This document shows positions 5,272-46,821 of a stretch of DNA of 64,000 nt, piece by piece. Made by a program: the position numbers and the translations under genes. The stretch lies in the NCBI GenBank assembly GCA_963724765.1, contig CAVRVY010000004.1, forward strand, positions 32,001 to 96,000, written 5' to 3'. A model generated the notes under the pieces. It was not told where the DNA came from and ran no database searches. It was given only the letters and a program-made list of their open reading frames with translations. The DNA is from an uncultured delta proteobacterium (GTDB taxonomy: Bacteria > Desulfobacterota > Binatia > Binatales > Binataceae). Position 1 is the stretch's first letter. Each line of letters opens with the position of its first letter.

Positions 5272-5370
5272 GCGGATATGCTTGACCACTACTAAGAGAC
5301 AGTTGAGGAAAACTCCGAACCATGCTACAAGAATCAAAGGATCGGAATGCTCCGTGGTTGATGGTAGTTT

Positions 5371-5443
5371 CACGCCCGAGAGGAATTGAACCTCCATCTA
5401 CCGGATTCGAATCCGGTGCTCTGGCCAATTGAGCTACGGGCGC
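5371..5443 (-). tRNA. tRNA-Arg(TCG)-like gene with abnormal 6-nt anticodon loop (possible pseudo-tRNA)
   Basis: Acceptor GCGCCCG/CGGGCGT, D-arm GCTC/GAGC, anticodon arm CCGGA-TTCGAA-TCCGG, T-arm GGAGG-TTCAATT-CCTCT; no encoded CCA. Confidence 0.75.
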
Positions 5444-5496
5444 AAACTCGATCCAGAACCGCTTTGGCGCTGGCACGCTGAGGCGGTTCGCTTTTT

Positions 5497-6412: not shown

Positions 6413-6688
6413 ATGAAAGCTCGCCACGCAACCGTGCTCGTCCTGGTCGGATGGTATCTACTAAGCCCGGCATCTCCATCTGGAAGCTCCGGTTATCTGA
6501 GTAGGCTTCAAGACCGAGTGTTCGGACCGGCCTCGATCCCCCCGATGTCGGAGTGGAATCAATTGGGCGCTTTTGACACAGCGGAAAGATGCGAGGCCGC
6601 GAAAATTCAAATCGGGAATTCCGGCGGAGAGAATATCGGTCAAGCCGTTTGTATTGCTTCGGACGATCCTCGCTTAAAAAGAAATTAG
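6413..6688 (+). CDS. Small secreted two-Cys protein, GWYL...CIAxDDPRLK family (copy 1)
   Basis: Signal-like N-terminus; paralogous to 23444..23662 and 38017..38313. Confidence 0.75.
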   Translation: MKARHATVLVLVGWYLLSPASPSGSSGYLSRLQDRVFGPASIPPMSEWNQLGAFDTAERCEAAKIQIGNSGGENIGQAVCIASDDPRLKRN

Positions 6689-23443: not shown

Positions 23444-23662
23444 ATGAGTCCCCGGCCCGCCGCGCTCGCCCTGGTCGTCTGGTATCTGATGCGGCCGCCG
23501 CTGCCGCACCTCAACGCTCATGCCATCCATACGGAGGCCGCCGCACCCCTATCGCGATGGATAGTAGTCAGAACCTTCCCTACGCAGAAGAAATGCGAGA
23601 CCCACCGAGCCAACCCGTGGGACCGGTGCATCGCGACCGACGACCCGCGCCTCAAAAAATAA
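23444..23662 (+). CDS. Small secreted two-Cys protein, GWYL...CIATDDPRLK family (copy 2)
   Basis: AALALVVWYLMRPP...APLSRW...CIATDDPRLKK. Confidence 0.75.
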   Translation: MSPRPAALALVVWYLMRPPLPHLNAHAIHTEAAAPLSRWIVVRTFPTQKKCETHRANPWDRCIATDDPRLKK

Positions 23663-23934: not shown

Positions 23935-23939
23935 TTATA

Positions 23940-23988
23940 TGGTGGGCAGGGAGTGAATCGAACACTCGACACGAAGATTTCAGTCTTC
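23940..23988 (-). repeat. att core: duplicated 3' part of tRNA-Phe
   Basis: Identical to 38579-38628 except for one missing T in the anticodon loop. Confidence 0.95.
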
Positions 23989-24052
23989 AAAATACCTAAT
24001 CACGCCAGTATCTCTAGGCGCGAAGCTGAAACGCTGCGAAACCCCTAAGCCC

Positions 24053-25124
24053 TACCGCCATCAGGGCCGGCAGCGGCGATATGCGATCGGCACCTATCCG
24101 CCGCTCAGCTTGGCCGATGCCCGCGAGGAAGCGCGCAACGCGCTGGCGCGGGTCCAGACCGGCACCGACGTGGCCGAGGTCAAGCAGACCAGCCGGCAGG
24201 GTGACACGTTTGGCGAGCTGGTCGAGCGCTACGGCCGAGCACGCCACGGTCAAGAACAAACCGGGGACGCTGCGCGAGAAACGGAAGCTGGCGAAGGCAC
24301 TCGCACAGTGGGAGCACCGCAAGGCGTGCGACATCACACGCCGCGAAGTAATCGCCCTGGTCGATGGGATTGCGGCACGCGCAGCGCGCATCCGGGCTAA
24401 CCGCATGGTCGCATTCCTAAGCTCGGTGTTCTCGTTCGCGGTCGCCAAGGAGATCGTGCCCGCCAATCCCGCATTCCGCATTCCAAAACCCGGACTTGAG
24501 AATCAGCGCGAGCGCGTGCTGACCGACGCCGAAATCAAGGCCGTGTGGGCGGCGCTAGACAACGAGCCGGCGAGCACCGCGGCGATCTTCAAACTGGCGC
24601 TGTTGACCGGCCAGCGGCGCGGCGAAGTTTGCGGGATGCAATGGGCCGAATTGGACTTTGATTCGGGCTGGTGGAGCATCCCAGCCGAGCGGACCAAGAA
24701 TCGCCTGGCGCATCGCGTGCCGCTCGGCCCACAGGCTCATGCGATCCTGGCCACGCTGAAAGCCGAGGCGCAGAAGGCTTCGCGTCCTTCCGTGTTCGTC
24801 TTCCAGAGTGCGCGACACCTCGGGCAACCGCCGCTCAACATCCACAAGCCCCTAGCCCGACTGATGGCGAGCACGGGCGCCAGTTTCCGAGTCCACGATC
24901 TGAGGCGTACAGCCGCGACGGGCATGGCGCAGATTGGAATCCCGCGCATGGTCATCTCGCAGATCCTCAACCATCGCGAGGGTGGCGTGACGCAAATTTA
25001 TGACCGCTACTCCTACGACCGCGAGAAGCGGATGGCGCTTGCCAAGTGGGATGAGCGCCTGCGTCAGATCGTAACCGGCGAAGCCTCAACCAAGGTAGTC
25101 GAGCTTGACCAGTACCGCGCTTGA
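24053..25124 (+). pseudogene. P4-like tyrosine integrase, N-truncated and frameshifted near 24230
   Basis: Arm-domain tail IGTYPPLSLADAREEA lies in a different frame from the core domain (GQRRGE, TKN, HDLRR, LNH, IYDRY). Confidence 0.88.
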
Positions 25125-26285
25125 TCGAGGCCGTGATAGAAGACCGACCGCTTGAAAATTACGGCAACCCACGACTATCAGGCGCAAAATCCGGTACTGG
25201 CCTACTTTCGCGTCGAGCGGCCTAATTTGAAAGGCGAAGTGGCTAGTTTCGGAAGGGAAGGAAACGGCGAATCGTTGGGCCAGTTGGGTGGGGCCAGTCT
25301 CTCGAATTGCCGCGAGCCTCGAGCCGAGGGGGGGTCAACGCGAAGCCTGACTGCAACCTCTCAGAAAACACTACTTCCTGTCAAAACGGAATTGTCTCGC
25401 AGAGAACCAATGCGAACGAAGCGGCGTGGCGGAGCTTCACGAATCTTTGATTTTGTAGACCCTATCCAAAGCTTTCAAAAACAGGCGCGCCCAGAAGTCT
25501 CGCTCCTCGCGTGTCCGTGTGTGCGCTGTGAATAGGGTTTTAGGGGACGGGGCAGTGGCCTAATCTGCCGGGTCGGGTCGCCCAATTCAGCCATTACCCA
25601 AAATCCTACAATTAGTTTAGTAGCGCGATGCGTCAAGCTATGAACGACAAGGCGGCGATAACTCCATCGCAGGCCACGCCGGGACGGCCGGTGTGGGTGC
25701 CGTTGCCGAGTACTGGGGCGTGGGTCCGGGGATTGATCGACGGCCTGAAATGGGACGAGGGCACGTCTGGCTACGTTGCCTGTGTGCGCATTGCGGCTCT
25801 AGGCATTGGACGTTTGTATTTCAGTAAACGGGTGACCAACCGCCCCCCCAGACTGCCAAGCTGGCTCGAAAGCGCGACGGATGGGTAGCCGGTAACCGGG
25901 CGCCGTCGGAAACCCTTGTGGCACAAGGCTTTCCGCAGACAAAATATCTTTTCCTAATTCTATGGGATTTCTGTTCTTCCGGCCGCTTGTCCCGTTGAAA
26001 GTCCGAATTCATCCAAGCTGTTGCGTGAGAGGTTTCAAAGAGCGGATAGTGAGAGCTGTCACACGTTCCCGGCTCGTACGGCGAGCACAACGGCTCCGCC
26101 TTTCCAACGTGCGCGCCTTCACCGGGGCCCCACAGGCCCCCAAACACAAATGGCTCCCCAGGCGCGGCGTCAGGTCGAGGAGATGGCCCCGTCCTTCTGC
26201 TGGAATCCTTTCGGACGGCAAGCACAACACGACATCAAACTAAAATGACGTTTAGTCTCTGAATCGTGAACGGAGTACGTAACGT

Positions 26286-26612
26286 ATGGCTGATTATTTA
26301 CTCATCGAGTCGCGTGATCCTTTCGAAAGCAACGACACGGCCTACTTTTATGATCTCGCCGAGAGCCTCGTCCGGGAAGGCAACCGCGTTTCGCTGTTCC
26401 TGATTCAGAATGGCGTCCTGCCGACCCGCCGCAGCGAGCGCTCGGCGGCGCTGTCTCGCATAGCGAAGGCCGGCGTCGAATTGCTGGCTGATGATTTTTC
26501 CCTGCGTGAGCGTGGGATCCGCAACGAAAAACTGATAGCCGATGTGCGACCCGCGTCGCTGGATTTTGTGATCGATTGTATGGCCGCAGGCCGCAAAACT
26601 CTCTGGCACTGA
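26286..26612 (+). CDS. DsrH/TusB-like protein (DsrE superfamily)
   Basis: LFLIQNGV, DDFSLRERG, C-terminal W. Confidence 0.75.
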   Translation: MADYLLIESRDPFESNDTAYFYDLAESLVREGNRVSLFLIQNGVLPTRRSERSAALSRIAKAGVELLADDFSLRERGIRNEKLIADVRPASLDFVIDCMAAGRKTLWH

Positions 26613-26628
26613 ACATCGAGGTTCCGCT

Positions 26629-27042
26629 ATGGCTGCGTCGAAAACTCTAACTTTCGCACTGATGGATCCACCTTACGAGAACGCACGCTCGACCACCGCG
26701 TTGCGCCTGATAGATTGCGCGCTCCGGCGCGGGCACAACGTCAACGTCTTCGCTTACGAAGGCGGGGTCGGCCTCGCGTTCGCGAAACAAGCCCCTCATC
26801 CAAACGCAATGCACGGGAGGGACGTTGCCCAGGAGGACCATCCAAATCCGAAAGATTGGATCACTGCGCTACTCAAAGAGGCGGAGCAGCGTGGGACGAA
26901 ACTCGACTGGGTGCAATGCGGCATGTGCGTTGACGAGCGCGGCGCGGGCGAAGCGGTCGCTGGGTTGCGCCGCGGAAGTCCGGCGGATCTTTGGAAGTTC
27001 GCGCAGGCCTCCGACAACACGCTTATCATTCCGAGCAAATAG
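26629..27042 (+). CDS. DsrE/TusD-like sulfur-transfer protein
   Basis: PPY motif, VFAYEGGV, CGMCVDERG at the active-Cys position. Confidence 0.8.
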   Translation: MAASKTLTFALMDPPYENARSTTALRLIDCALRRGHNVNVFAYEGGVGLAFAKQAPHPNAMHGRDVAQEDHPNPKDWITALLKEAEQRGTKLDWVQCGMCVDERGAGEAVAGLRRGSPADLWKFAQASDNTLIIPSK

Positions 27043-27051
27043 GAGCCTTCT

Positions 27052-27438
27052 ATGCCCCGCCGCGTGCTGAACATTATCGAGAGCGCTTATCGGGCCACGA
27101 TCGAGGAGCAGGATGACACGATCGTTTGGCTAAGCTACATGCTGCGAGACGCGGGTGCGGAGCTCAGCGTTCTGCTCCGAGGCAACGCCGTCAACTACGC
27201 TGTCAGCGGACAGGACTGTTCCGGGCTTTCATTTGGGGAGCGACGACAAACGCAGCCGCCGCGCCTCGATCCGGATCTCGTAAAGCTGATGGAAAAGGGC
27301 GTACCAGTCCTCGCGGTCGCAGAAGATCTGACGGAGCGCGGCATCGACTCGCAGGATCTCGTGGGCGGAATCAAGACCATAGCCCGATCCGGTGTGGCTA
27401 AGTTATTCGATTCCTACGACCTGGTCTGGCACTGGTAA
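27052..27438 (+). CDS. DsrF/TusC-like protein
   Basis: LLRGNAVNYAV, EDLTERGI, YDLVWHW. Confidence 0.75.
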   Translation: MPRRVLNIIESAYRATIEEQDDTIVWLSYMLRDAGAELSVLLRGNAVNYAVSGQDCSGLSFGERRQTQPPRLDPDLVKLMEKGVPVLAVAEDLTERGIDSQDLVGGIKTIARSGVAKLFDSYDLVWHW

Positions 27439-27523
27439 ATCACCGCGCCCAACTGCGGCGTGCCGCCGATGCCCGCTGGCGGGCGCGGCTGACGCCGAAC
27501 GTTAAACAAATCGCATAAAACGT

Positions 27524-29067
27524 TCAGGCGGCAGCCTTGGCTGCTACGTCCTTCCGCAGGCGCGTCCATTCGCGCGGCGTCAGCTCCAAGACCAGCCGCG
27601 CCGGATGCGTCGATACCCGCTCGATGACATCGCGCAGATACACGAACGGATTGATCTGTAGGTGCTTGCAGGTCTGCACCAGCGAACACAGGATGGCGGT
27701 GCGATGCGCCGCGGCTTCGCTGCCCGCAAACAGCCAGTTCTTGCGGCCCAACACGATCGGTCGTAGCGCCTGCTCCGCCCCGTTGTTGTCGATCTTGAGC
27801 CGTCCGTCTTCGGCGTAGCGCGTCAGGGCGACCCAGTTGCGCAGCGCGTAGCCGATGGCTGCACCGAGCGGGCTCTTCGGCAACGCCGCCGCCCGCTGCT
27901 CCTGTAGATACGCATGAAGTTTCTCCAGGATCGGCCGCGCCTGCTCCTGCCGCAACTGCTGTCGTGCGGGCGCATCGAGATGCCTGTCGCTGGCCGCCCG
28001 CTCGATCCGGTAGAGCTGCCCGATGATCGCCAACGCCTGCGCGCACGGCACCGCCGCCGTCGGCAGCGCCTCCTTGAAGTACCGGCGGGCGTGCGCCAGC
28101 ATCCGACTTCGATGATCCCGGGATATTGCGCAAACACGTCGTCATAGGCGGGCGCCGCATCCACCTGGAGATACCCACGGTAACCGGCCAGCATCTTCAG
28201 CGGCCCGTCTCGATTACGTGACCAGGTGAAGTCGTAAACCACCTCGCCCAACTCACCCCGATACACCCACAGATGGCCGGTCCGAATCTCTGGCGCTCGA
28301 CTCGGGTCCTGCACATCCAGGGTCGTGTCGTCGCATTGAATCCACGGTGACTGGCATACCTGCTCCCGGTGCATGGCGCGCACGATCGGTTCCAGTAAGT
28401 CTGCCACTGCCCCGTTCCACTCCGAGAGCGTGCGCCGGGTGATCTGCACTCCGTGGCGCTCGAAGATCTGCTCCAGCCGATACAACGGCAAATGGTCCGC
28501 GTACTTGGAGCTGACCACGTGCGCCAATAACCCCGGCCCCGGTCGTCCCTTCTCGATGGGACGCGCCGGCAGGGCGGCTTGCACCACGCCTTGTTGGCAG
28601 CGCCCGCAGGCGTATTTCGGTCGCACATACTCCCGGATTACAAACGAGGCCGGCACGTAGTCCAGCTCCTCGGTGATGTCGGCACCGATGCGCACCTTCG
28701 CGGTATCGCAGTTCGTGCAGTGCCGCGCACTGGCCGGGGGCACTACCTCAATGCGTTCGCGTGGCAGATCGGCTGGCAATCGACGCCGGCCGGGGTGGCG
28801 CCGACGGAGTGATGCAGGTTCGGCGGTCTCGTCCTGTCGTGACTCGTCCGTGGTTTCGGCTTGTACTGGCCCCGCTGCTGCGGGCTCCAAGGGCAGCACC
28901 CCTTGCTCGATTACCGGCACGCCCTTCTCGCTGCGCCGCCCGAACAGCCGATGTGTCAGCAACTGCACCCGCTGGCGCAGCGCCGCGTTCTCTTTGTTGA
29001 GCCGATCGATCTCGTTGCTGAGTTCATCGAGGACTGCCTGGGTCTCTGCGCCGCTTGCCGTCGCCAC
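27524..29067 (-). pseudogene. tnpC: IS66 transposase TnpC, frameshifted near 28100
   Basis: LFGRRSEK, KYADHLPLYR, DDT, GC(W)AHARR split across two frames, IDNNGAE, GRKNWLF. Confidence 0.93.
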
Positions 29068-29134
29068 GTTCCACCACCACCCGAAGATGCTATTACCACA
29101 GTGTATGTGGAATAGCTATTCGCACTGAGTATCG

Positions 29135-29473
29135 TTACCCACCGATGGCTAAGCGAGTATAGCGTCGACGCTCGCGCACGACCTCGATCCCTTCCAGCAA
29201 CAGGTACAGCTCCCGGGCGTTAATCTCATCGCGCTCCAGCGCCGCGAAGGTCCCAGCCTCGAGGCGCTTGTACAGCAGCCAGAACCCGTCCCGCTCCCAC
29301 ACCAGCATCTTCACCCGATTGCGTTGGCGGTTGAAGAATACAAACACGTGGCCTGACAACGGGTCCTGGCGCAGAACCTCCTGCACCTGTGCGCTCAGCC
29401 GATCGAACGACCGGCGTAGGTCGGTAGCGCCGCGGGCGACGAAGACCCGCACCGACGCTGGTAGCGTCAGCAT
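29135..29473 (-). CDS. tnpB: IS66 accessory protein TnpB
   Basis: TDLRRSFD, FVFFNR, KRLEAG motifs (IS66 TnpB, not the RNA-guided TnpB). Confidence 0.92.
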   Translation of the reverse strand: MLTLPASVRVFVARGATDLRRSFDRLSAQVQEVLRQDPLSGHVFVFFNRQRNRVKMLVWERDGFWLLYKRLEAGTFAALERDEINARELYLLLEGIEVVRERRRYTRLAIGG

Positions 29474-29821
29474 GCCGTCTGCAGGGCCTGGAGCACCCGC
29501 TGCAGCGTGTCGGTATCGGCTCCCGCCGGCACCCGCACAACATGCCCGCTGTGCAGGACGATCTCCAAAACCGCTGGTGTCCTTCGGAACGCTCGCCGGT
29601 GGTGGCACTTCGGTGAACACTACCGCGTTCTCCACCGCTGCGCCGTTCCCATCCTCATCGCCGGCATACCGGAAGACCCGCCGCCACCAGCTCAGAGTGC
29701 TCAGTGGGATTCCGCGTTTCTCCCCAAACTCGCGCAGCGTCAACCCGCTACGCTGCCAGCCCGCCAACACCCGGCGCATCTGCCGTGCCCGCACTGATGT
29801 CGTCGACCCCAGGCTCCCCAT
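29467..29821 (-). pseudogene. tnpA: IS66 accessory protein TnpA, frameshifted near 29580
   Basis: WQRSGLT...WWRR HTH; natural tail LEIVLHSGHVVRVP...AC* is in another frame. Confidence 0.8.
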
Positions 29822-30624
29822 CGACCCGTACCTCTGAATCCATTCTGCGCTATCGACCGCTCGCCGGGGGAGATGTAATTGGTCACCCAGTTACGTATTT
29901 CACTTTCCCTCTCCGGCAGCTCCGGGCACGCGATCCGAATTGTGACGGACGCGACAAGCCGGAAGCTAAGACGTGATCCTGCCAGACCGGGAGTGAAGGA
30001 AATCTGGCGAGGCAAGGTGTGCGCGCGGGCAGAGGATGGATTAAGGCAACATGGCCGTAGCGCAAGCCCTTTTACTCCTGGCGGGCGATTGCGCGCCGGG
30101 AGCGTGACATTTCGGGGTCTGAGTTACCTAGTTGCTACCTATTCCCGTCCGCCTGCCGCAAAGGGAGCAGCAATCAAGGGCTTTTAGGTAGTAGGTAGGA
30201 AGACAACGAATCAGCGATGCGCGTCTGGGGAGACGCACGATCCGCAGCAAGTATCCTTCCCCCGGTTTTCACACAGCAGGGAATAGGGGGTCCTGCCTCG
30301 TCTGGCTGGTGGTTGTCGATGGGATGTGTCATCGGCGGGATTTTAGAATTGTTTGTCGAACTGTGCCTCCATCGTCTCCAACGTCTCCGTCGTCGGTATC
30401 TCGGCAAAGATGGGCTTCGGTTCGATGGGGCCCCAGCCTAGAGATCCCTTGGGGCCGGGGGTCCCCCCGACCCGCCGAAAAGAATTCCCGCACCTGCGTC
30501 GTGTCTGCGGGACGAGACGCGCAAAATTTCCTATCGCGCGACGAAAACTCAATGGGGCCCCAGTATGGGGGACACCTAAATCCGGGCCCCGTGAGCATCA
30601 AGGGAGCATCTGCAATTGAGTCCA

Positions 30625-30684
30625 GATTCTAAAGTCGTGGCTCCTTCGGAGGGCGAGATTCCAAAACCGTGGCTCCTTCGGAGG
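30625..30684. repeat. Two-copy direct repeat, 32-bp period
   Basis: GATTCTAAAGTCGTGGCTCCTTCGGAGG and GATTCCAAAACCGTGGCTCCTTCGGAGG. Confidence 0.7.
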
Positions 30685-30758
30685 TGAAGTTACGAATTGG
30701 CGAGTAGGTCCTGTCTGTAGGGCCGGCGCGAACTCGCCCTCCTAAAAGGTGCGGATTT

Positions 30759-30865
30759 CATCGTCACCATCGTCACTCGTTGTGATTTGCGCCTGGTTTT
30801 CGCGGATTTCATTGGGATTTTTCGGTGACGATGAACGCGCACCTCCATCGTCACTCCATCGTCAC
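30759..30865. repeat. Iteron/ori-like CATCGTCAC cluster
   Basis: Direct copies at 30759, 30768, 30846, 30857; inverted copy at 30825. Confidence 0.7.
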
Positions 30866-31070
30866 CTCCCCATTGGATCCCGCTCTTGCGGCCCGATTCC
30901 GGGAGGGTGGATCAGTTGAGGCTCGCGCCACCGATCGAAGTCGACTCCACAGATACAAAGTGAGGAATGGGATAGGGGGTCCCATGTCGGGGGTAGGAGC
31001 GATTTTGGGTGCTGCCCTAATTCGAGGATGAGCGTGTTCCTAGTTTGAAAGGTGGGATGACCTAATTTCC

Positions 31071-31289
31071 CTATTTCCGACCCCCAAGCTCGCGCGCAAT
31101 CCGTTCGATAGCGTCGTCGCATACTTTGAGGCGCTCTTGCGGCGTCATCTCAGTCGGGAGAGCCCCGAGCTTGGCAATCGTCGATACCGCGCCCCTCAGA
31201 GCATCGACCAGTTGCCCGACATCACGCCTGGTGGACGCGCGTGAGGCAATCTCGTCGAGTTTCTCGGTAATTTTCTCGATGGTAGTCAA
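31071..31289 (-). CDS. Small hypothetical phage-like protein
   Basis: Amphipathic helical ORF. Confidence 0.45.
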   Translation of the reverse strand: MTTIEKITEKLDEIASRASTRRDVGQLVDALRGAVSTIAKLGALPTEMTPQERLKVCDDAIERIARELGGRK

Positions 31290-31292
31290 GTC

Positions 31293-31544
31293 TCACAGCG
31301 ACGCGGCCCAGATTACTAGGCGCGCAAGGCCATAATAGAAACTCGCGCTGAACAGCAACATCCCGGTCCACACACCAACCTTCTGCAAAACCGCCGTCAA
31401 TTTTGCGGTATCGGAGTACTCGCAAACAGTAAGATGAGCCAGTACCAGGTGGCCGGGTTCTCCAGACATCGCCTCTTGTCGGAGGTTCACTTCATATGCT
31501 GCCGGCTGCTGCCGGATTTCTTGCGTCCTGGCCAATTCCTGCAT
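31293..31544 (-). CDS. Small hypothetical membrane protein
   Basis: ATG start, GAGGG upstream, hydrophobic C-terminus. Confidence 0.4.
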   Translation of the reverse strand: MQELARTQEIRQQPAAYEVNLRQEAMSGEPGHLVLAHLTVCEYSDTAKLTAVLQKVGVWTGMLLFSASFYYGLARLVIWAASL

Positions 31545-32276
31545 ATTTACAAAGCCCTCGGATTAAAACACTGATCCCCACTTACCACCTACACCACCAA
31601 CGCGTGACAGAGCAGGATTGATGCCCGGGAGTTTTTCTAGCGCGATTCGCAATATTATCTTTGGATTCCTTATGGTTCTCGCCCACTCTCCTCTACATTG
31701 AGTTGCGCTTCTGCAACGCTCACCCGTACGCGAGCAACGAAAGCGCCAAAGCGCGACGGCGGAATTGCCGGCGGGTGGCCCGGACGGCCAGGGCGGTCTA
31801 CGAAACAGACCTTGCCACTCAGCCGCTTCGATTCAACTACCTTGTTTGATTCTTTCGGCAAGCCATTCGAGCGCGTCCCTGCGCATAGCCTGCGGATCGG
31901 TGAGGCCGTTGTCGGATAACTCCTCTAGGCCGATAACGTCAGGCTCGCTCCTTCGGTAATCGGCGAGCTATTGTCCTTTGCGGCGAGCGCGCACGTAGCC
32001 TTTGTGCCAGTCGCTCTAGATGTATTCTTCATCTTCGAGCATTCTTTCCGCCTCGATATCATTTAGTTGAGGCTTCATCCGCGTCTCTCCGCTTTTGGTT
32101 TCTCCGCGGCCGGATTCAACTCTGGCCCAGCGCCCACCGAAGGGCAGAAGCACTTCAGCCATCAACTGACAAGGGCGAGTGCGGCGTGATGGAACCTCGC
32201 GGCTGGAAAGCGTAGGGCCGCGAACCTGCGGGCGTCGAGGCGCATTGCTAGGCTGCGATCCCGTGGTCCACGATGA

Positions 32277-32364
32277 AGGCCGGTCTAGGAATCGAACCTA
32301 GCGGCAACTGCAGCTGCCCAACGGTTTTGCAGACCGCGGAGAACGCCAGTTCTCTGTACCGGCC
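32277..32364 (-). tRNA. Non-canonical tRNA-Cys(GCA) with Sec-like D-arm and long variable arm
   Basis: GGCCGGT/ACCGGCC acceptor, U73, D-stem GAGAAC-TGGC-GTTCTC, GCGGT-CTGCAAA-ACCGT, V-arm GGCAGC-TGCA-GTTGCC, CTAGG-TTCGATT-CCTAG; followed by TCA rather than CCA. Confidence 0.82.
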
Positions 32365-32405
32365 CAGCCGACCAGGAGGAGTGCAGCGGCGTGGCGGGGC
32401 TTCAC
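32364..32405 (-). pseudogene. 5' module of the GWYL/DDPRLK family fused to the tRNA
   Basis: GTG AAG CCC CGC CAC GCC GCT GCA CTC CTC CTG GTC GGC TGG = MKPRHAAALLLVGW. Confidence 0.8.
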
Positions 32406-32477
32406 ATTCTGCCATCTACCAGAGACGACCAGAAATTCGTCGGACGGCATCGGGGCCCCTAAGAGCGTTTGCGGGCG

Positions 32478-32666
32478 TCAGAGCCGCCAGAGAGCGTTGA
32501 CGATCAAGATGGCGATGAGGATGAAGGGCGCGATGATAAAGCCGAATATGTTAGCTCCTTCTTTGTCCTTATCCTTAGAAAAGAGGCTAAAGAGGGCGCC
32601 TGTGATGATGGCCGTCGCGTACAGCGCGATGGCACTACTAACCAGCCATATCGCAGCGTGAACCAT
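32478..32666 (-). CDS. Small two-TM membrane protein
   Basis: AGGAAGGA RBS, two hydrophobic helices. Confidence 0.6.
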   Translation of the reverse strand: MVHAAIWLVSSAIALYATAIITGALFSLFSKDKDKEGANIFGFIIAPFILIAILIVNALWRL

Positions 32667-33231
32667 AATCCTTCCTTTGGCTAAGGTTATCTGGCGCGAC
32701 TCACCCTCTCGATTGATGAGATATATTGCTTTTGGCCATTTTATAACATCAATATCTATATATGGCCAGTAATGACGCTATTTTAGACTTTTTGACTGTT
32801 CTACGCAAGTGAATACTCGCGCTACCGCCGAGTAGTTGCACTTTCTCAAGCGCCCTCAAACATCCGGTCGCGAGATCGACGGGAATGGGCCCCAATAATT
32901 TCCCGGCTAATCAGCGGGGAGATTCGGGCGCGCTGTCAGGGTCTGCAGCGTCTTGGCGGTCGAGGGGCCTAAAAGGCGTTAGGGCCGCCAAATTCGGTTG
33001 ACATGGGCACGCAGGGCGCGTCGGGAGCGACGATCTAAAAGTGGAGTCTCTCCTAACTTTGGCGTGAATTTTCGGAGGAGGGCGATCTTGTCTTCATCCT
33101 GAAGGGGTGTCCCAATGCCGATCGCAAACATGCGCGGCGACGTGGCGAAGCTTCATGGAACAGCGATTCTACTCAGAGCGGTGCCGGCGATCGATCACCT
33201 TCAGCTAAAGTGATCGTTTCACTCAGAGTCT

Positions 33232-33495
33232 TTACGTGTCTGTGCTTTCGGCACGGGTTGCTTGGTCAACAGCCTTCCGCACTTCCTGCAATCGCCCGCC
33301 AGAGTTCCGGGCGCCAAAAACCCTTGGCCCATCCCAGCGGGATTCCTGTGCGATCTCTGCGGAATCCATGCACCGCCAGTGGCCGTCTCCCAAAGTCCAA
33401 CGGCGCATGGTCCGATCGATTCCGGAACCCCAATTGTCTAGAACGATGCGGACCTTGTTTCCCTCGCTCGTTTGCAGTTCGACAATTCGTTTCAT
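33232..33495 (-). CDS. Hypothetical phage-like protein
   Basis: GAGGG RBS and AT-rich promoter region upstream. Confidence 0.5.
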   Translation of the reverse strand: MKRIVELQTSEGNKVRIVLDNWGSGIDRTMRRWTLGDGHWRCMDSAEIAQESRWDGPRVFGARNSGGRLQEVRKAVDQATRAESTDT

Positions 33496-33633
33496 GGACT
33501 TTATCCCTCTATATCATTCAGTAGCAGCTAGAATTAATATATGTTTACTTTAACAAATAAATAAGCGTCTATACTAGCCTCAATGAAGGATAGGCCACGA
33601 TTCTAGAGCGCGGAACCAATCATCAGGGCACCT

Positions 33634-33825
33634 TTACGCGCTGGTTAGAGCGGAATCGATGCCACTGGCGAGCGAACCGATGTTGTTGCCCAACTTACGG
33701 TAGGCGCTGTAGACCACGACCGCGATCGCCGCCATGATGAGCGCATACTCGGTCATCGTCTGGCCACGCAGCTTGCGAACCACGGACTCACGAGCACGGA
33801 TGAACATCTTCGTCACTGAATCCAT
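33634..33825 (-). CDS. flp: Flp family type IVb pilin (second copy)
   Basis: RGQTMTEYALI motif, AGGAG RBS. Confidence 0.92.
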   Translation of the reverse strand: MDSVTKMFIRARESVVRKLRGQTMTEYALIMAAIAVVVYSAYRKLGNNIGSLASGIDSALTSA

Positions 33826-35156
33826 TTTTCTATCTCCTGGTTGTAAGTTGGCTCCTAGAACACCATCAAAGATACATACATTACTTTATTTTGTCTAGAA
33901 TGTGTTTAGTTTTGCTTTGATATTTGAATTTAGGCAATATTCGCCTCCCGACGCGACGCTGTGCCATTTCTGCATGGTGGGAAAGAAAACGGGGCGAGCC
34001 CGGCCAAGGGTCCGCCCCGCGGTATCGAGTCTCGACTGCGAGGTCATGCCGCAGCCTTGCGCTCGTCGGCCGGCTCGATGGCCTGCAGAATTTCGTGCTG
34101 CACCTCGCCCAACTCGCTGATCCTCCGCCAACAATTGTTTAACTGTCTTCTCGGCGACCGTGCGGGCATGGCCGGCGTCCTCAAAGTCGAATAGACCGGC
34201 CTCGACTTCGGCTGAGAGCTTGTCGGCGCGTTCGGCTATTTGCTTTGGTATACACAAGAGCAAGGGCATAGTGCCCATGCTCCAGTCTTTGTGGAGTGCC
34301 GTTGCACGGCGCATGAGTGTCTGGTTGTTCGCGGCCCACGCGGTAACGGCCTCGGCCACCCCCTGGGCTATCTCCCGGCCGCGGCGGGCTCTGTAGGTCT
34401 TACTGGGCCTCCAGCTTCCGTTAGCGGCGCGCGTGAAGCGCCAGCCCCTCCGTTATTTAAGTCTTCCTAAAAGCCGAAAACCTTGAGCGGGTTCTCGGCT
34501 TCACGGCAATCGATTTACCAATCTTGGTCAGATAGCGTCGCGTCTCGAACGTCCGAACGCCACGTGCGTCAAGAAATATCTAGGACGGTGACTCTATGAA
34601 TGAAGATTTCGTGGTCGCACTACTTACGATAACTTTTTTGCTCATTATTATTGCGGGAGAGTTGAGTGTCATCAGCTCTCGCGCAGCTGAATGCCTTAGC
34701 GTGCTGGAACAAATACGTAACAAAATCATCAGCGATTGATCCGATTCTCAGTTGAGGATCGCGGACTGTGGCTGCGTCGGCTCGACGATGACACCCTCAA
34801 GTGTCGCGATGGCGGCGCGGCGCGCGGGTTTCCGCGCACGCACTACCAACGGCGGTCGTACGCTTCAGAAAGTGACATCATTTGAACGTCAATGATTAGT
34901 AGACCCGCTTTCTCAGTCGGCGCGATGGTTGTAGTCGAATAGCCGGCCGTTTTGACCGCGCCCCAACGTTTCATACATGCTCATTCGTAGCTGGAATCTC
35001 ACCAGTCGCGGGCCGGAGCCGCCATCTTCCGGGGGGCGCGCCCATCGCGTCCCGGCCCAAGAGCCGGACTCGTCGTGCTTCCGCGGCGATAGGTCGGAGG
35101 CAGTAACGCATCCCAACCGGCACCATCAGGGTTGGCGCCAAGGGAGTGTACTGCCC

Positions 35157-35399
35157 ATGGACGACCGGCGTCCGCTCGATCCTCATTCCGCCCCCAGTCG
35201 AGATCTTCGTCAGGCTGAAGTCCTCGCGCTCCTGCGTGTATCGCGAGCGACTTTCTGACGATTAACCCAACGATTTCCTGAGTTGAGACCTACCCGCTTA
35301 ACCCGGCGCGTCCCACTTTGGGATGCCCTTGTAATTGGCCGCTTTCTCGACAAACGACGACCTTCCGACGATACGGTACGCGTAAATGAACGCGCGTGA
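35157..35399 (+). pseudogene. AlpA/excisionase-like HTH with in-frame TGA
   Basis: LRQAEVLALLRVSRATF*RL...FPELRP...LW. Confidence 0.65.
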
Positions 35400-36192
35400 T
35401 CGTCTCCTCGACTGGTTGCTGCTTAAAAACGGCAGCCAGTATATCACCATCTTCCGATATTGGCCCGAACTCGGCTCGGCCCTCATAGATATCTGGTCTG
35501 GTTGTTGGGATTGCCTACAATGAGGCTTCTCTTGGCCGACCTCGACGCCGCAACGATGGATATGCGAGATCTCGCCGCGGATGTGGATTTTTCTGATCCC
35601 AGTCAGGACGAACTATTTATCACAGCAGACGCCTCGCTCTACTTGCAGATTACGCATTTTTTGCCTGATTCGATTTCGATTCCTTTCGAAGTCCAGCGGG
35701 CACTGTTTCTACAAGCCGTGGTGGCCCATGACGCGGGCGTGGTGGACCTGCTTCTAGGCGAACCTGCCGCCGATCTCGCATCGCGCTTCCTTCCGCCAGC
35801 GTTCGTGCACTTGTTTCCTACGCTACCGAGATCGGTCAGGACGGCGACTATCTGCATAGCGACAGAGGAACTGGGGGAAGCGAGCCTTTTTCGAGGCTCA
35901 GCGGCGCGGATGCGAACACATCGGGCGCCACGCTGCGGACCTCCTAGCGCTCCAGGCTGTGCTACGTGAGCGCGTGCTGGTAGATATGGCGCGCGCGGTC
36001 GCAGATGCGGACGGCATCGAGATCGGCGACCTGCTGGGCGCGCAAACCTATGAGGCGGCGGCCGAACTAGCCGGAGACCGGGACCTCGTCGACCTGACGG
36101 TCTATCCCGGAGCTGGACGAACCTTCTGCGAGCAGGGGCACAGGTTTAAGATGCTGGCGCCCGACCAAGCGCGGACGCTTCGGACTTGGTGA
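35386..36192 (+). pseudogene. Fragmented hypothetical gene
   Basis: Protein-like segments continue across three frames (35386, 35460, 35959). Confidence 0.35.
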
Positions 36193-36271
36193 GTTACAAA
36201 TCTTTGTAGATCGACGAGAAGCCGAAAGCCCGACTGGGCGTTCGGCTTTGAATGGAAAGAAGCGGGGAAGC

Positions 36272-36802
36272 TTAGAGTTTGACCGGCGGGCGTATCTTCT
36301 TCTCCTCGATCCGGCGCACCCAGCGGTTGCCACCCTCCTCACAGCCGAATTCGCGCACCAGCTCTCTTAGCTTGTCGTCGTTGCGCGCCAGCTCGCACCC
36401 TCGCGACAACGAGGCGCAAAGGTTCCAAAGAAGATTCATGCACTCTCTGCGGGCTTCCGCGCTCTCCTCAAATTCCGGCAGTTCGGATCTTAAATCGTCC
36501 ATGAGATCACATGCGGTATCGATCACCGTTTCAATACTGCCCGCCTCGACATTTTCCTGCTCCTGCAATTCGCCGATATTTCCCGACGCGCACTCGGGGC
36601 ATCGGCACCATTCGGCGAAATTTTCGGGGAGTTCGGATCTGTATCCCTGCGCGAGCAACATAAGCTCAGCCCGCCGCGCCGCGTCGAAAAGTCGATCCGC
36701 CAGAAAATAGGCTTGGCAATCGTGACACCGCCACGTTGAGAGCGTCCGCTTCGGGGCGTTGTCCGACTTTCCTACGGTGGTTGGTTTCGTTTTTTTTGCC
36801 AT
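36272..36802 (-). CDS. Hypothetical protein with CxxC...CxxC zinc finger
   Basis: AGGAGG RBS; CHDC and CPEC; downstream hairpin at 36219-36249. Confidence 0.65.
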   Translation of the reverse strand: MAKKTKPTTVGKSDNAPKRTLSTWRCHDCQAYFLADRLFDAARRAELMLLAQGYRSELPENFAEWCRCPECASGNIGELQEQENVEAGSIETVIDTACDLMDDLRSELPEFEESAEARRECMNLLWNLCASLSRGCELARNDDKLRELVREFGCEEGGNRWVRRIEEKKIRPPVKL

Positions 36803-36996
36803 TGCTGCTCGTTCCTCCTTTCCTTTAGCTCAGATTGGGGCCGCCGTGGCGACCTCGATAGACGAGCGCACCGAAGCTATCACGCCAACGGTCTGCATGT
36901 CCACAGGCAGACGGACGGCTTGTCAGAGCGCTAGAGAACCGGCTAGCTTGGGAGAACATTTACATTCTTTTGTAAATCGACGGGGGTGGGTAACGA

Positions 36997-37230
36997 ATGG
37001 CGGAAAAAGACAACAATGCCCTTGTTCGGCGCGCGATGTCAGTGCTGGGCCGTCGAAGCGCAGCGAAGCTCACGGCGGAGGAACTGACCGAGCGAGGCCG
37101 GAAAGCCGCGCAGTCTCTCTGGGCAAACATCGCCCCCGAGGAGCGCAGTGTCGAAATGAAGCGTCGAGCCAAGGTCCGCGAACGCAACAAAGCCAAGGTG
37201 CGCAAGACGGACATGCCGTCATCGCGATAG
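36997..37230 (+). CDS. Small basic protein related to the KGG-type passenger
   Basis: LGRRSAAKLTAEELTERGRKAAQSLW. Confidence 0.6.
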   Translation: MAEKDNNALVRRAMSVLGRRSAAKLTAEELTERGRKAAQSLWANIAPEERSVEMKRRAKVRERNKAKVRKTDMPSSR

Positions 37231-37273
37231 ATCGGGCTCGCCGCGTGGCTGGTCCTCGGTACCAGGAGGAGCG

Positions 37274-37543
37274 ATGAGGAAGCTTCAACTCAAACTGATT
37301 CTTTTGTTCCGCTCCGTTCCCAATGACGACATCGCCCTGCGGGGGCTCTTGGATAGATTCCATCTCATCGAGCGATTCACACCCTATGTGGCCGGTGGCC
37401 TAGCCGGCGCCCGAGGGCCACTCCGGAGCGACGAGGCAAGGGAGTGGCTGGAGAAGCGACGAAACGAGGCGATCGCTGAACTGACTTTGGCGGTCGCGAC
37501 AATCGCCATGCTGGCAGCGATAGTTGCCGCAGTGCGCATCTAG
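37274..37543 (+). CDS. Hypothetical protein with C-terminal TM helix
   Basis: AGGAGGAG RBS. Confidence 0.55.
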   Translation: MRKLQLKLILLFRSVPNDDIALRGLLDRFHLIERFTPYVAGGLAGARGPLRSDEAREWLEKRRNEAIAELTLAVATIAMLAAIVAAVRI

Positions 37544-38016
37544 GACAGAATCTGAGCGATGACGGAACCGCGGGAGATAGAGCGTTGGCCCCGCGGCTAC
37601 ACCGCGCGATGCTCAGCGCCCGGATGTCGGAGACCGCTGAAGAGGAATGGGCAGTGAAAGGCGTCTTGAAGATCGGCTAATGGATGCGTTGAAAATCCCC
37701 GAAGCTATCGGGCCAAGGAAACGCCACTCGGGTGCGCGATAGGCGTGGCGGCGATTATCGTGGGCGTCACCGCATACTTCTTTTTGGCTATGCGGCTGGC
37801 CGAGCGGATATGGAGTCTCCTGTGACGTTTCGTGGACACGGCACAGGTTGTAGAAGGCAACACAACGCCACGTCGGCGCTTAAGGCTGAGGACATCGGGA
37901 TACTCGCGATCCTCTGAGCAAAGGGAATACCCCGCGCCAGAGCCCGTTACGGGCGTTTACAGAGGCCGGAGCCAAAGCTCTGGTCTCTCGCTTTCTTGGC
38001 TGTTAGAAACAGACCG

Positions 38017-38313
38017 ATGAAGCCCCGCCACGCCGCCGCGCTCGCCCTGGTCGGCTGGTATCTGATGATGCCGCCAATTCCGCCCAAGGGCAGCACTCCG
38101 ATGGTCGGCGTTGACGCTCAGGCTCCGCTGTCCAAGTGGACCGTGTCCTCCGGGTTCGACACCGCTGCCGCCTGCCACGTGGCCCACGGTAAACTCCTCG
38201 ATGACGCCGCGAAGCTAGGGAACCCAAAAGAGCTGGAGGTCATACGAATTCAGGTAGCGATGGCTGATTCCCAGTGCATCGCGACCGACGATCCGCGCCT
38301 CAAGGAAAAATAG
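38017..38313 (+). CDS. Small secreted two-Cys protein, GWYL...CIATDDPRLK family (copy 3)
   Basis: MKPRHAAALALVGWYLMMPP...APLSKW...FDTAAAC...CIATDDPRLKEK. Confidence 0.8.
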   Translation: MKPRHAAALALVGWYLMMPPIPPKGSTPMVGVDAQAPLSKWTVSSGFDTAAACHVAHGKLLDDAAKLGNPKELEVIRIQVAMADSQCIATDDPRLKEK

Positions 38314-38578
38314 CGCGTCGCAGACGGCCTGAATGTTCGGGCCAAGATTGGTTTCACGAGGGATACGTCGCGGGAATAGCGTTGGGCGATTTTGCGGGCG
38401 TGGTCTTCACAAGAGAACCAACCACAGCGAAGTGAGAAGCACGAAGACGACGCCGCAAAAGCGAACATTGAGCGATGTTCAGTCGTGAGCGTGGCCCGAT
38501 CTATTACCTAGCTGTTACCTAACCGCCAAGCGCCGGTTTTCTAACTTTCAGGAAATCGTTTGTTCTCGCGCGGTTATT

Positions 38579-38654
38579 TGGTGGGCAGGGAGTGAATCGA
38601 ACACTCGACACGAAGATTTTCAGTCTTCTGCTCTACCGACTGAGCTACCTGCCC
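38579..38654 (-). tRNA. tRNA-Phe(GAA)
   Basis: Canonical 76-nt cloverleaf, CTGAAAA loop, encoded CCA. Confidence 0.97.
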
Positions 38655-45223: not shown

Positions 45224-45552
<329 letters not shown>

Positions 45553-45561
<9 letters not shown>

Positions 45562-46821
45562 CATTCGACCAATTTCGCCGTCTGACTTTTTGCCGTCGCG
45601 CAGACCGCGCCTGAGCGGCGCGCGCCCCTTGGGCGCCGCGGCGGCGTTCGCGCCGCGCGCCGATCGCGCCACAATCGCCTGCGGCGTGACCAGAAAATTC
45701 GCGAGCCGACCCAGCGCGGCGAGGCTGGGAGTGCCCGGCCGGATTTCCGGCGCGAACGCGACCTTCACGCGCGGCGGCAATCCCTCGACGAAGCGGCTCA
45801 CGCGACAGATATCCTCCTCGGCGCACGCCCGATAGGTCTCCAGGTAGGCTAGCGCCGCGGCCACGCCGTCATCGACGGCGCCATCCGCCTCCAGCGCCGC
45901 CCTAAGCCGGTGAATTTCATCGAGCGCACCGTCGTGTATGGATTCGCGGCAGATCGCTTCGTCGAGAAAGCGGTTGATCACGATCGCGCCGAGATGAAGC
46001 CCCTCGGACTCCATCTTGTCGATAACCTTGCGCGCCTGGCGCAGCCGATCGGGCTCGGCGGTGGTGACCAGTACGAAACGCACGGCAGGCGAGCGCAGCA
46101 GCGCGGAGACCTTTCGCATCCGGGCGGCGATCCGTTCCGCCGCGCCGGCGGTGGCGGCAAAGAAGTCTGCGATGGAAGAGAGCGTGTGGCCGCCGGCGAA
46201 GCGCTCCAACTCACGCGCGACGTAGCTCGTGATGCGCCCGGCCAGCCTGAGCGCCAGCGAAGCCGGCCGCCCCGCCGGCTTGAGCAGCCATCGCGCCGCC
46301 TGCGAGTCGAGCAGCCGTATCAGACGCGCCGGCGCCTGCACGAACTCAAAGGCTTGCGCGGCGGGGGGAGTATCAACGACCTCGAGATCGAAATGGCCCG
46401 CGACGTGAAGATCGTGGAGCGCCTCCAGCGCGGCGTAGGCGTCGGAGCCGGCGAACCGGGTGCTGAGACTCTGATAAAAGGCGTTGTCGAAAATGCGCTT
46501 GCGGATGGCCGGGTCGGTCACGTGCTCGGCCACCATCGCGTCCCATTCGCCCTTCACGTCGAGCACCATCGCGCTGAGCTTGAGCGCGGGATCGAGACCG
46601 GCGGCACGCAGGCGGCGCGCGTCGATCCGCGTCTGCTTGCCGCCCAGGCGCGCCAATCCAAGCGCTTCGCGCAGCCGGCGCGCCGGGTCGACCGTGATGA
46701 CCGCGGTGCGCAGATGGGTGGCCGCGGCGGCGAGGCCTAGGGCGGCGGCGATAGTGGTTTTGCCAACTCCGCCGGAGCCCAGGACGACCAGGACGGAGCG
46801 CGGTTTGAGCAATTCCTTCAC
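45553..46821 (-). CDS. ArsA/GET3-family ATPase
   Basis: GSGGVGKTT, TVDPARRL, VVDTPP. Confidence 0.88.

Follow-up and report, generated by a model that had tools for sequence, protein, structure and literature searches.

An accessory tRNASec-like tRNA(GCA) joined without a spacer to the orphaned start of a small secreted-protein gene on a decaying genomic island, probably by a single old deletion or recombination event

In the stretch of DNA analysed here (64,000 nucleotides, hereafter the window), an accessory tRNASec-like tRNA with the anticodon GCA directly follows the start of a dead gene from a multi-copy family of small secreted proteins. Our preferred reading, to which we assign a probability of roughly 0.6, is that the junction is one old product of illegitimate deletion or recombination that has been kept, and that the relic possibly serves as the 5' expression flank of the tRNA. 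A family gene would have lost everything 3' of codon 14, and its 5' flank and 14-codon stub would have become joined to nucleotide 1 of the tRNA at a G/GG overlap of 1-2 nt, the partner being an accessory tRNASec-like tRNA(GCA) in a decaying island at tRNA-Phe. This would have happened once, with the product then inherited or transferred to give the copies in the genome of the window (G000) and close strains, at the diverged metagenome locus L061 and, as a fragment, on contig C1. Transcription from the family start region would yield a precursor in which about 40 nt precede the tRNA; RNase P would cut this leader away, and the relic would act as the tRNA's 5' expression flank. The elements of the junction and the two family sequences most useful for comparison are:

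32277..32365, minus strand: accessory tRNASec-like tRNA, anticodon GCA (ARAGORN, Rfam RF01852, fold)
32364..32405, minus strand: relic, the first 14 codons of a family gene (VKPRHAAALLLVGW); the final 2 nt double as nucleotides 1-2 of the tRNA
32406..32437, minus strand: family-type 5' flank of about 32 nt, with a weak -10-like TAGATG inside and homology to C3:941768
38014..38313, plus strand: intact reference family gene (MKPRHAAALALVGWYLMMPP...CIATDDPRLKEK; ORF list), adjoining tRNA-Phe
25384..25440, minus strand: second orphan leader of the same island (VKLRHAASFALVLCETIPF*; BLAST, 21 nt at 95%), similar to the family up to about codon 12

Positions 32405-32364 of the minus strand read GTG AAG CCC CGC CAC GCC GCT GCA CTC CTC CTG GTC GGC TGG, which reproduces the 14-codon reading ending on base 32364 given in a preliminary description of this DNA. 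The 42-mer occurs once in the window and was matched by 0 of 100 shuffles. In a BLAST-type comparison 37 of its 42 nt agree with the beginning of the intact family gene at 38014, all of the first 14 codons align with 12 of 14 residues identical (85.7%), and the local score against the family leader is 31, the shuffle maximum being 16. When the flank is included, the similarity to a paralog on contig C3 of the same genome (G000:C3:941768) extends over 72 nt at 80.6% (window 32364-32435), continuing about 30 nt 5' of the start codon, with CTCTG-TAGATGGCAG present in both. These two homologies bear out the earlier proposal that a 5' segment of the family is fused to the tRNA without a spacer; the segment consists of some 32 nt of flank plus 14 codons. 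No family gene body was found 3' of the tRNA by tblastn or three-frame translation, and the C-terminal motif C[IV]A[ST]DDPRLK is likewise absent downstream of it; since both body and C-terminus are missing, we regard 32405-32364 as a relic and not as a gene.

Because both ARAGORN and Rfam place tRNA nucleotide 1 at 32365, 2 nt of the TGG codon belong to the tRNA as well. The overlap shrinks to 1 nt if the acceptor stem is read as 7 bp, and it is only with this reading that the previously suggested G1 at 32364 agrees. Under either reading the spacer is zero and the overlap is a G run of 1-2 nt, and a chance deletion at GG microhomology, mentioned in the preliminary description as a fallback, is the best fit.

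The junction is bridged by contigs in two of the four metagenome runs compared, and these two come from different studies: record 7 of run X2 covers 32114-32501 with 0 differences, and record 13 of run X5 covers 32275-32464 with 1 difference. In runs X1 and X4 the pieces stop near the junction and there is no bridging contig. Since contigs from runs of different studies bridge it, the junction is not an assembly artefact. Viral contigs gave 0 matches to the junction pattern, and the 50-codon ORF running across the junction, used as a protein query, gave one candidate, which matched the tRNA-derived part only and came from a contig of 1175 nt, equal in length to the contig of L066; further junction copies did not emerge.

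The tRNA is called by ARAGORN as tRNA-Cys(GCA) of 91 nt (32275-32365) and scores 61.9 bits on the Rfam tRNA-Sec model RF01852 (32277-32365; gathering cut-off 47). Its minimum-energy fold is a clean cloverleaf (-41.5 kcal/mol) with stems of 8 bp (acceptor, first pair G1:U), 6 bp (D, closing a loop of 4 nt), 5 bp (anticodon) and 5 bp (T, CUAGG/CCUAG, without a bulge) and a variable arm of 6 bp. A U follows the acceptor stem, and CCA is not encoded. The consensus fold of six homologs (the window tRNA and five others) has the same shape, and CUGCAAA is invariant in all six. The G1:U pair is seen in 5 of the 6 aligned homologs; for L062 the alignment shows a gap at this place, and its sequence has a C at position 1. 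Since this C cannot form the eighth pair, L062 fits the 7-bp acceptor reading only. The discriminator differs with the reading as well. With 8 bp it is U in the window and L063, C in L003 (in one alignment also in L062) and G in L061 and L068, and only the 7-bp reading gives U throughout (6/6). Given the GCA anticodon and the U after the acceptor stem, cysteine is the most likely amino acid with which this tRNA would be charged.

The same genome has a true selC at C3:1323597, which scores 70.2 bits on the tRNA-Sec model and encodes CCA, together with selA (561 bits), a single selB above the cut-off (383 bits, on C3) and a normal tRNA-Cys. No second selB and no cysS lies beside the odd tRNA, whose neighbours are small ORFs without a family match. 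Elsewhere in G000, ARAGORN reports further over-long or odd tRNAs at C1:1040721-1040913, C1:265448-265535, C3:1300532-1300628, C4:931320-931408, C4:1046304-1046388 and C4:1438922-1439014. They include a 95-nt tRNA of undetermined type adjoining a 74-nt 'tRNA-SeC(tca)', an 88-nt Pro(tgg), a 97-nt Ala(cgc), an 89-nt Val(cac), an 85-nt Ala(tgc) and a 93-nt Gly(gcc), and may be allo-tRNA-like genes or false calls. In the window itself, ARAGORN calls a minus-strand tRNA at 5370-5444 to which it assigns no type and a two-base 'anticodon' (cg), and which Rfam scores as a normal tRNA at 60 bits; a family gene at 6413-6682 lies about 1 kb from it. A 'tRNA-Stop(UUA)' called beside an orphan leader at locus L015 folds poorly and was set aside as unrelated.

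The odd tRNA lies within a segment of 14.6 kb (window 23935-38654) bracketed by tRNA-Phe and a repeat of its 3' end. The features of the segment and its surroundings that matter here are:

38579..38654, minus strand: tRNA-Phe(GAA), integration site of the island (ARAGORN; Rfam tRNA, 72.3 bits)
23935..23980: 46-nt direct repeat of the 3' part of tRNA-Phe at the far island end (repeat family D10, 98% to 38574-38619)
24081..25124, plus strand: tyrosine integrase of the island (Pfam Phage_integrase PF00589, E 2.7e-26)
26286-27438: three DsrE/DsrH-like genes, in the island
27524-29067: IS66 transposase, frameshifted and split into two frames, in the island
29135-29821: TnpB of IS66, in the island
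33634-33825: Flp pilin gene with copies elsewhere in the genome, in the island
23444..23662, plus strand: short family gene just outside the island, beside the displaced tRNA-Phe 3' fragment (repeats D1 and D13; ORF list; tblastn)
45226-45563, plus strand: bacterial RNase P RNA, class A (281 bits)

The island is ORF-poor, with many short ORFs that have no family match, and its GC content is 0.52-0.65 against about 0.65-0.70 in most flanking bins. It is a decaying genomic island.

Two stretches of the family proteins are conserved, MKxRHAAALALVGWYLMxPP at the N-terminus and C[IV]A[ST]DDPRLK at the C-terminus. G000 contains 12 clear copies, weaker ones and the tRNA-fused relic. A database search returned at least 983 relatives at E <= 0.001, all of them called 'hypothetical protein' or without a name; Pfam and NCBIfam scans of the family gave no match, and the relatives have no precomputed Pfam domain. 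Leaders were collected with tblastn at a permissive E <= 1, which gave 35 leader-like hits in G000 and 15 relatives' loci, those near the cut-off being marginal. When these 35 hits are stacked, the first 48 nt (38014-38061 in the reference) are nearly invariant in DNA, synonymous positions included; upstream flanks and gene bodies diverge freely, with flanks common to sub-groups only. Gene conversion, a function at the mRNA level and recombination are all possible reasons for this invariance. Family genes lie at both ends of the island and, in relatives, often beside tRNA genes. The DNA-level conservation of the gene start, combined with a high turnover beside tRNA genes, makes the family worth a separate look.

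Orphan leaders are common. In the 15 relatives' loci, which were chosen by leader match, the family C-terminus (DDPRLK-type motif) is missing in 14 of 23 leader copies and follows in 9 of 23; some of these orphan leaders may be frameshift errors of metagenome-assembled genomes, with no real truncation. Among copies that break early, similarity to the family ends at codon 9 (L007:425), codon 11 (L016 and L011:34), codon 12 (window 25440-25384), codon 14 (the tRNA junction at 32364 and L011:1113, the latter right after TGG) and codon 16 (L011:1495), and leader copies beyond these seven break later still. A mini-gene at L020:1542-1471 (G013, minus strand) has the leader fused to the last five codons (MKPRHAAALALVGWYLMVP joined to RLKEK), an internal deletion between both conserved gene ends.

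The hexamer TAGATG occupies 32418-32413, is followed by 7 nt and then by GTG, and has a TG at 32421-32420 (TGnTAGATG). The preliminary description was therefore right about the position of a TG-TAGATG -10-like element 7 nt from the GTG, but the element is a weak one: it agrees with TATAAT at 3 of 6 positions, and a search for sigma-70 consensus promoters (-35/-10 with spacing) in 31900-32800 returned 0 sites. Terminator-like sites were absent from the same interval. The family has no conserved promoter, and the regions upstream of the 35 leader-like hits have none in common. A search for sequencing runs that contain this stretch listed no RNA run. Several sub-groups have a -10-like hexamer (TAGAAT, TAGATG or TAACAT) 7-9 nt 5' of the ATG, a spacing which suggests that these sub-groups may make leaderless transcripts, and the flank at 32406-32437 is a possible promoter for such a transcript.

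RNase P takes off any 5' leader, and the promoter of a dead gene can drive a tRNA without a precise junction. Since the leader would be trimmed, and since RNase P RNA is encoded in the window, the stub would be harmless and the family start could drive the tRNA. Capture of a promoter by the tRNA, with RNase P removing the relic leader, is a plausible hypothesis. In the predicted fold of a precursor spanning 32270-32406 (minus strand), GUGAAG, around the start codon, is paired with CUUCAU in the 3' trailer immediately past the tRNA; the four tRNA arms are kept, and the energy is not better than that of shuffles (z = -0.02).

Homologs of the tRNA are rare. Of 165 genomes of the order 3 have the tRNA, of 401 genomes sampled at class level 1 has it (G000 itself), and a metagenome scan with a single pattern gave 6 loci representing 3 lineages; the negative tallies take in genomes flagged as unpublished (G033, G081, G083, G097, G109, G122 and G165). 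Viral contigs gave 0 matches to the tRNA pattern. In an RF01852 search of 151 genomes of the family, the 8 non-selC loci examined among the matches listed were Ser, Leu and other long tRNAs. Relatives also have a second tRNASec-like gene with UCA and a 93-nt tRNA-Leu(UAA) that scores on the tRNA-Sec model (L052, G124:C70:11402-11488; L053, G155:C12:24478-24565). The homologs, with their identity to the window tRNA, are:

G002 (L003/L060), same genus: 83-85%; no ARAGORN call (degenerate)
G130 (L068), same family: 77%; ARAGORN tRNA-Cys(GCA)
L062, metagenome: 92.3%; ARAGORN tRNA-Cys(GCA)
L063 (= L065 = L066), metagenome: 94.6%; ARAGORN tRNA-Cys(GCA)
L061 (duplicate L064), metagenome: 80.4%, the most diverged in its comparison set; degenerate, no ARAGORN call

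According to tblastx these loci have no neighbour genes in common; they share the tRNA alone. No significant leader is found 5' of four of the five other homologs (p = 0.47 for L003, 0.28 for L068, 0.07 for L062 and 0.38 for L063). L062 has its own TAGAAT 12 nt 5' of the tRNA (ARAGORN start L062:159), and therefore this type of tRNA can do without the family flank. A supposed family C-terminus upstream of the L063/L066 tRNA was rejected (9 residues, E 0.3). At L061 a leader is present which is degenerate but significant, its score of 22 being reached by 0 of 1000 shuffles (shuffle maximum 14). L061 is homologous to window positions 32398 to 32277, up to the 3' acceptor end of the tRNA and no further; it is surrounded by unrelated genes and flanked by short imperfect repeats of chance size. 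One neighbour of L061 has a 67% homolog at C4:800302 of G000, and there is no tRNA at that place.

A third occurrence of the junction is partial. Positions 471177-471219 of contig C1 in G000 are identical at 42 of 43 nt to window 32392-32350, a block made up of 27 nt of leader followed by 16 nt from the 5' end of the tRNA. Its edges are sharp, and the DNA on either side is unrelated. As to the origin of this copy, the homologous flank in three relatives stops about 40 nt before the 43-mer, in variable DNA. The 43-nt copy lies inside a 13.7-kb region (L001, G000:C1:459618-473405) which is bracketed by a duplicated tRNA-Lys(UUU) (56-nt repeat, 96%) and contains phage terminase and portal-like ORFs as well as TadE/TadG-like genes.

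Since the junction recurs in the C1 copy and in the diverged L061 copy, it has been inherited and is no fresh accident, and by the same comparison the fusion appears old enough to be common to L061 and to have left a partial copy on C1. Speaking against a single origin, the closest homologs, L063 (94.6%) and L062 (92.3%), are without the leader, whereas the diverged L061 (80.4%) has it; a single origin thus implies that the leader was lost later or that L061 decayed faster. Alternatively, fusion at this point may have happened twice, in G000 and in L061 independently.

The junction as such is ordinary genome decay, and the alternatives to our preferred reading differ mainly in what they make of it. 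The one to be taken most seriously, although we think it unlikely, is that the relic leader is neutral debris without a role, the tRNA being transcribed from elsewhere, for instance by read-through from the 62-codon ORF at 32666-32478, or being silent and decaying. Two of the six homologs (L003 and L061) are already degenerate and receive no ARAGORN call, no consensus promoter is found in 31900-32800, the island is ORF-poor with a frameshifted IS66, and orphan leaders are common, all of which is what such decay would look like. Yet every stem of the window tRNA is intact, the junction is unchanged in near-identical genomes from different studies, and at the 5' flank the identity with a living paralog has remained at 80.6%.

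We give only a small chance to a more elaborate version of promoter capture, in which the invariant first 48 nt would be a recombination handle that puts a leaderless-transcript promoter onto foreign cargo; GGCTGG would have been fused to the initial G of tRNA(GCA) more than once, in G000 and L061 independently, and a protein gene's start would thereby be reused as the 5' leader of a tRNA. The chance is smaller still for the portable module with a defined exchange point, the reading of the preliminary description; here the conserved 48-nt gene start would be a recombination handle, and cargo would be exchanged at GGCTGG, behind the family promoter. Such a module would account for the conservation of the first 48 nt in DNA across paralogs and genomes whose flanks and bodies differ, for a second orphan leader (L011:1113) that ends right after the TGG codon, and for the identical junction of G000 and L061, the leaders of which deviate from the family consensus at different positions; the C1 copy, too, resembles a crossover inside the leader. 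However, a break at codon 14 is found in only 2 of about 7 independent truncated leaders, four of the five other tRNA homologs lack the leader, and the family lacks a promoter common to all members. Apart from an exact 10-nt direct repeat of chance size, the unit has neither recombinase-type repeats nor target duplications at its flanks. With breaks at codons 9, 11, 11, 12, 14, 14 and 16, the scatter leaves a site-specific exchange point at GGCTGG unsupported. The preliminary description had itself counted scattered breaks in truncated copies, together with a general absence of the leader from homologous tRNAs, against the module: the breaks are indeed scattered, but the leader does accompany one tRNA homolog, that of L061.

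The 10-nt repeat consists of 32227-32236 and 32470-32479 (GACGCCCGCA on the minus strand), which surround the flank-leader-tRNA unit at a spacing of 243 nt; terminal inverted repeats around the unit are absent.

Very unlikely, in our estimate, is the idea that the 43-nt sequence on C4 and C1 is the core of an integrase attachment site lying over the leader and the 5' end of the tRNA. The two copies agree at 42 of 43 nt, their edges are sharp and their flanks unrelated, and both sit in tRNA-linked islands (at tRNA-Phe in the window; within a tRNA-Lys duplication with phage genes on C1), but there is no second copy on the same contig, the 3' half of the tRNA is duplicated nowhere in the genome, and in relatives the homologous C1 flank runs out in variable DNA. 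Moreover, integrases that target tRNA genes act on the 3' part of the gene. That the junction is an artefact or a chance resemblance, as might be feared for GC-rich sequence of fairly low complexity, can practically be dismissed, given that 0 of 100 and 0 of 1000 shuffles reached the match, independent contigs bridge the junction, and it occurs at three separate loci.

For the tRNA itself, the closest known systems are the selC* tRNACys genes (Mukai et al. 2017, NAR 45:2776, PMC5389517; review PMC7609411). In the parts of these two sources on which we draw, selC* tRNAs are described as having a GCA or UCA anticodon, a U73 discriminator and a tRNASec-like fold with an 8/4 branch and, in its T stem, an A51a bulge; only a subset of lineages have a dedicated selB* or cysS* downstream, and the hosts are anaerobic Firmicutes, Thermodesulfobacteria, Nitrospirae and Proteobacteria. 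The window tRNA resembles them, as portrayed there, in its long variable arm, 8-bp acceptor stem, 6-bp D stem with 4-nt loop and GCA anticodon, and possibly in the U after its acceptor stem, which is constant among the six homologs only with a 7-bp acceptor; its host genome likewise has selenocysteine machinery (selC, selA and selB in G000). In contrast to what those accounts give for selC*, the window tRNA has an 8/5 architecture with a bulge-free 5-bp T stem, has no selB* or cysS* beside it, is island-borne and rare, and belongs to a metagenome-assembled lineage from soil or peat.

The allo-tRNAs of Acidobacteria and other bacteria are, in the same parts of these sources (PMC5389517, PMC7609411), credited with serine identity elements and an acceptor branch of 12 bp (8/4 or 9/3); pseudogenes that overlap mobile-element ORFs occur among them, as do members linked to transposable elements or toxin-antitoxin loci. 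Like the window tRNA, they are tRNASec-like accessory tRNAs from soil or peat metagenomes, but the latter has 13 bp (8 + 5) instead of the 12 reported there. Bacterial tRNASec (RF01852) is matched above its cut-off, and the 8/5 architecture is that of the genome's own selC; unlike tRNASec, however, the window tRNA has GCA and not UCA (reading UGA), does not encode CCA, and scores 61.9 bits compared with 70.2 for selC.

Finally, the junction can be set beside tRNAs whose 5' flank derives from a neighbouring gene. RNase P processing would tolerate any leader here as there, but the flank in the window differs in that it is the recognisable start of a multi-copy protein family, has zero spacer and recurs in a second organism. 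If the relic does drive the tRNA, this would be a clear natural case of a horizontally moving non-canonical tRNA being expressed via the start of a dead protein gene, and would be relevant to the question of how new genomes come to accommodate accessory tRNAs with the potential to alter decoding. With respect to the selC* and allo-tRNAs as those sources describe them, the window tRNA extends the group by an 8/5 form that resides on genomic islands in a soil or peat bacterial lineage.
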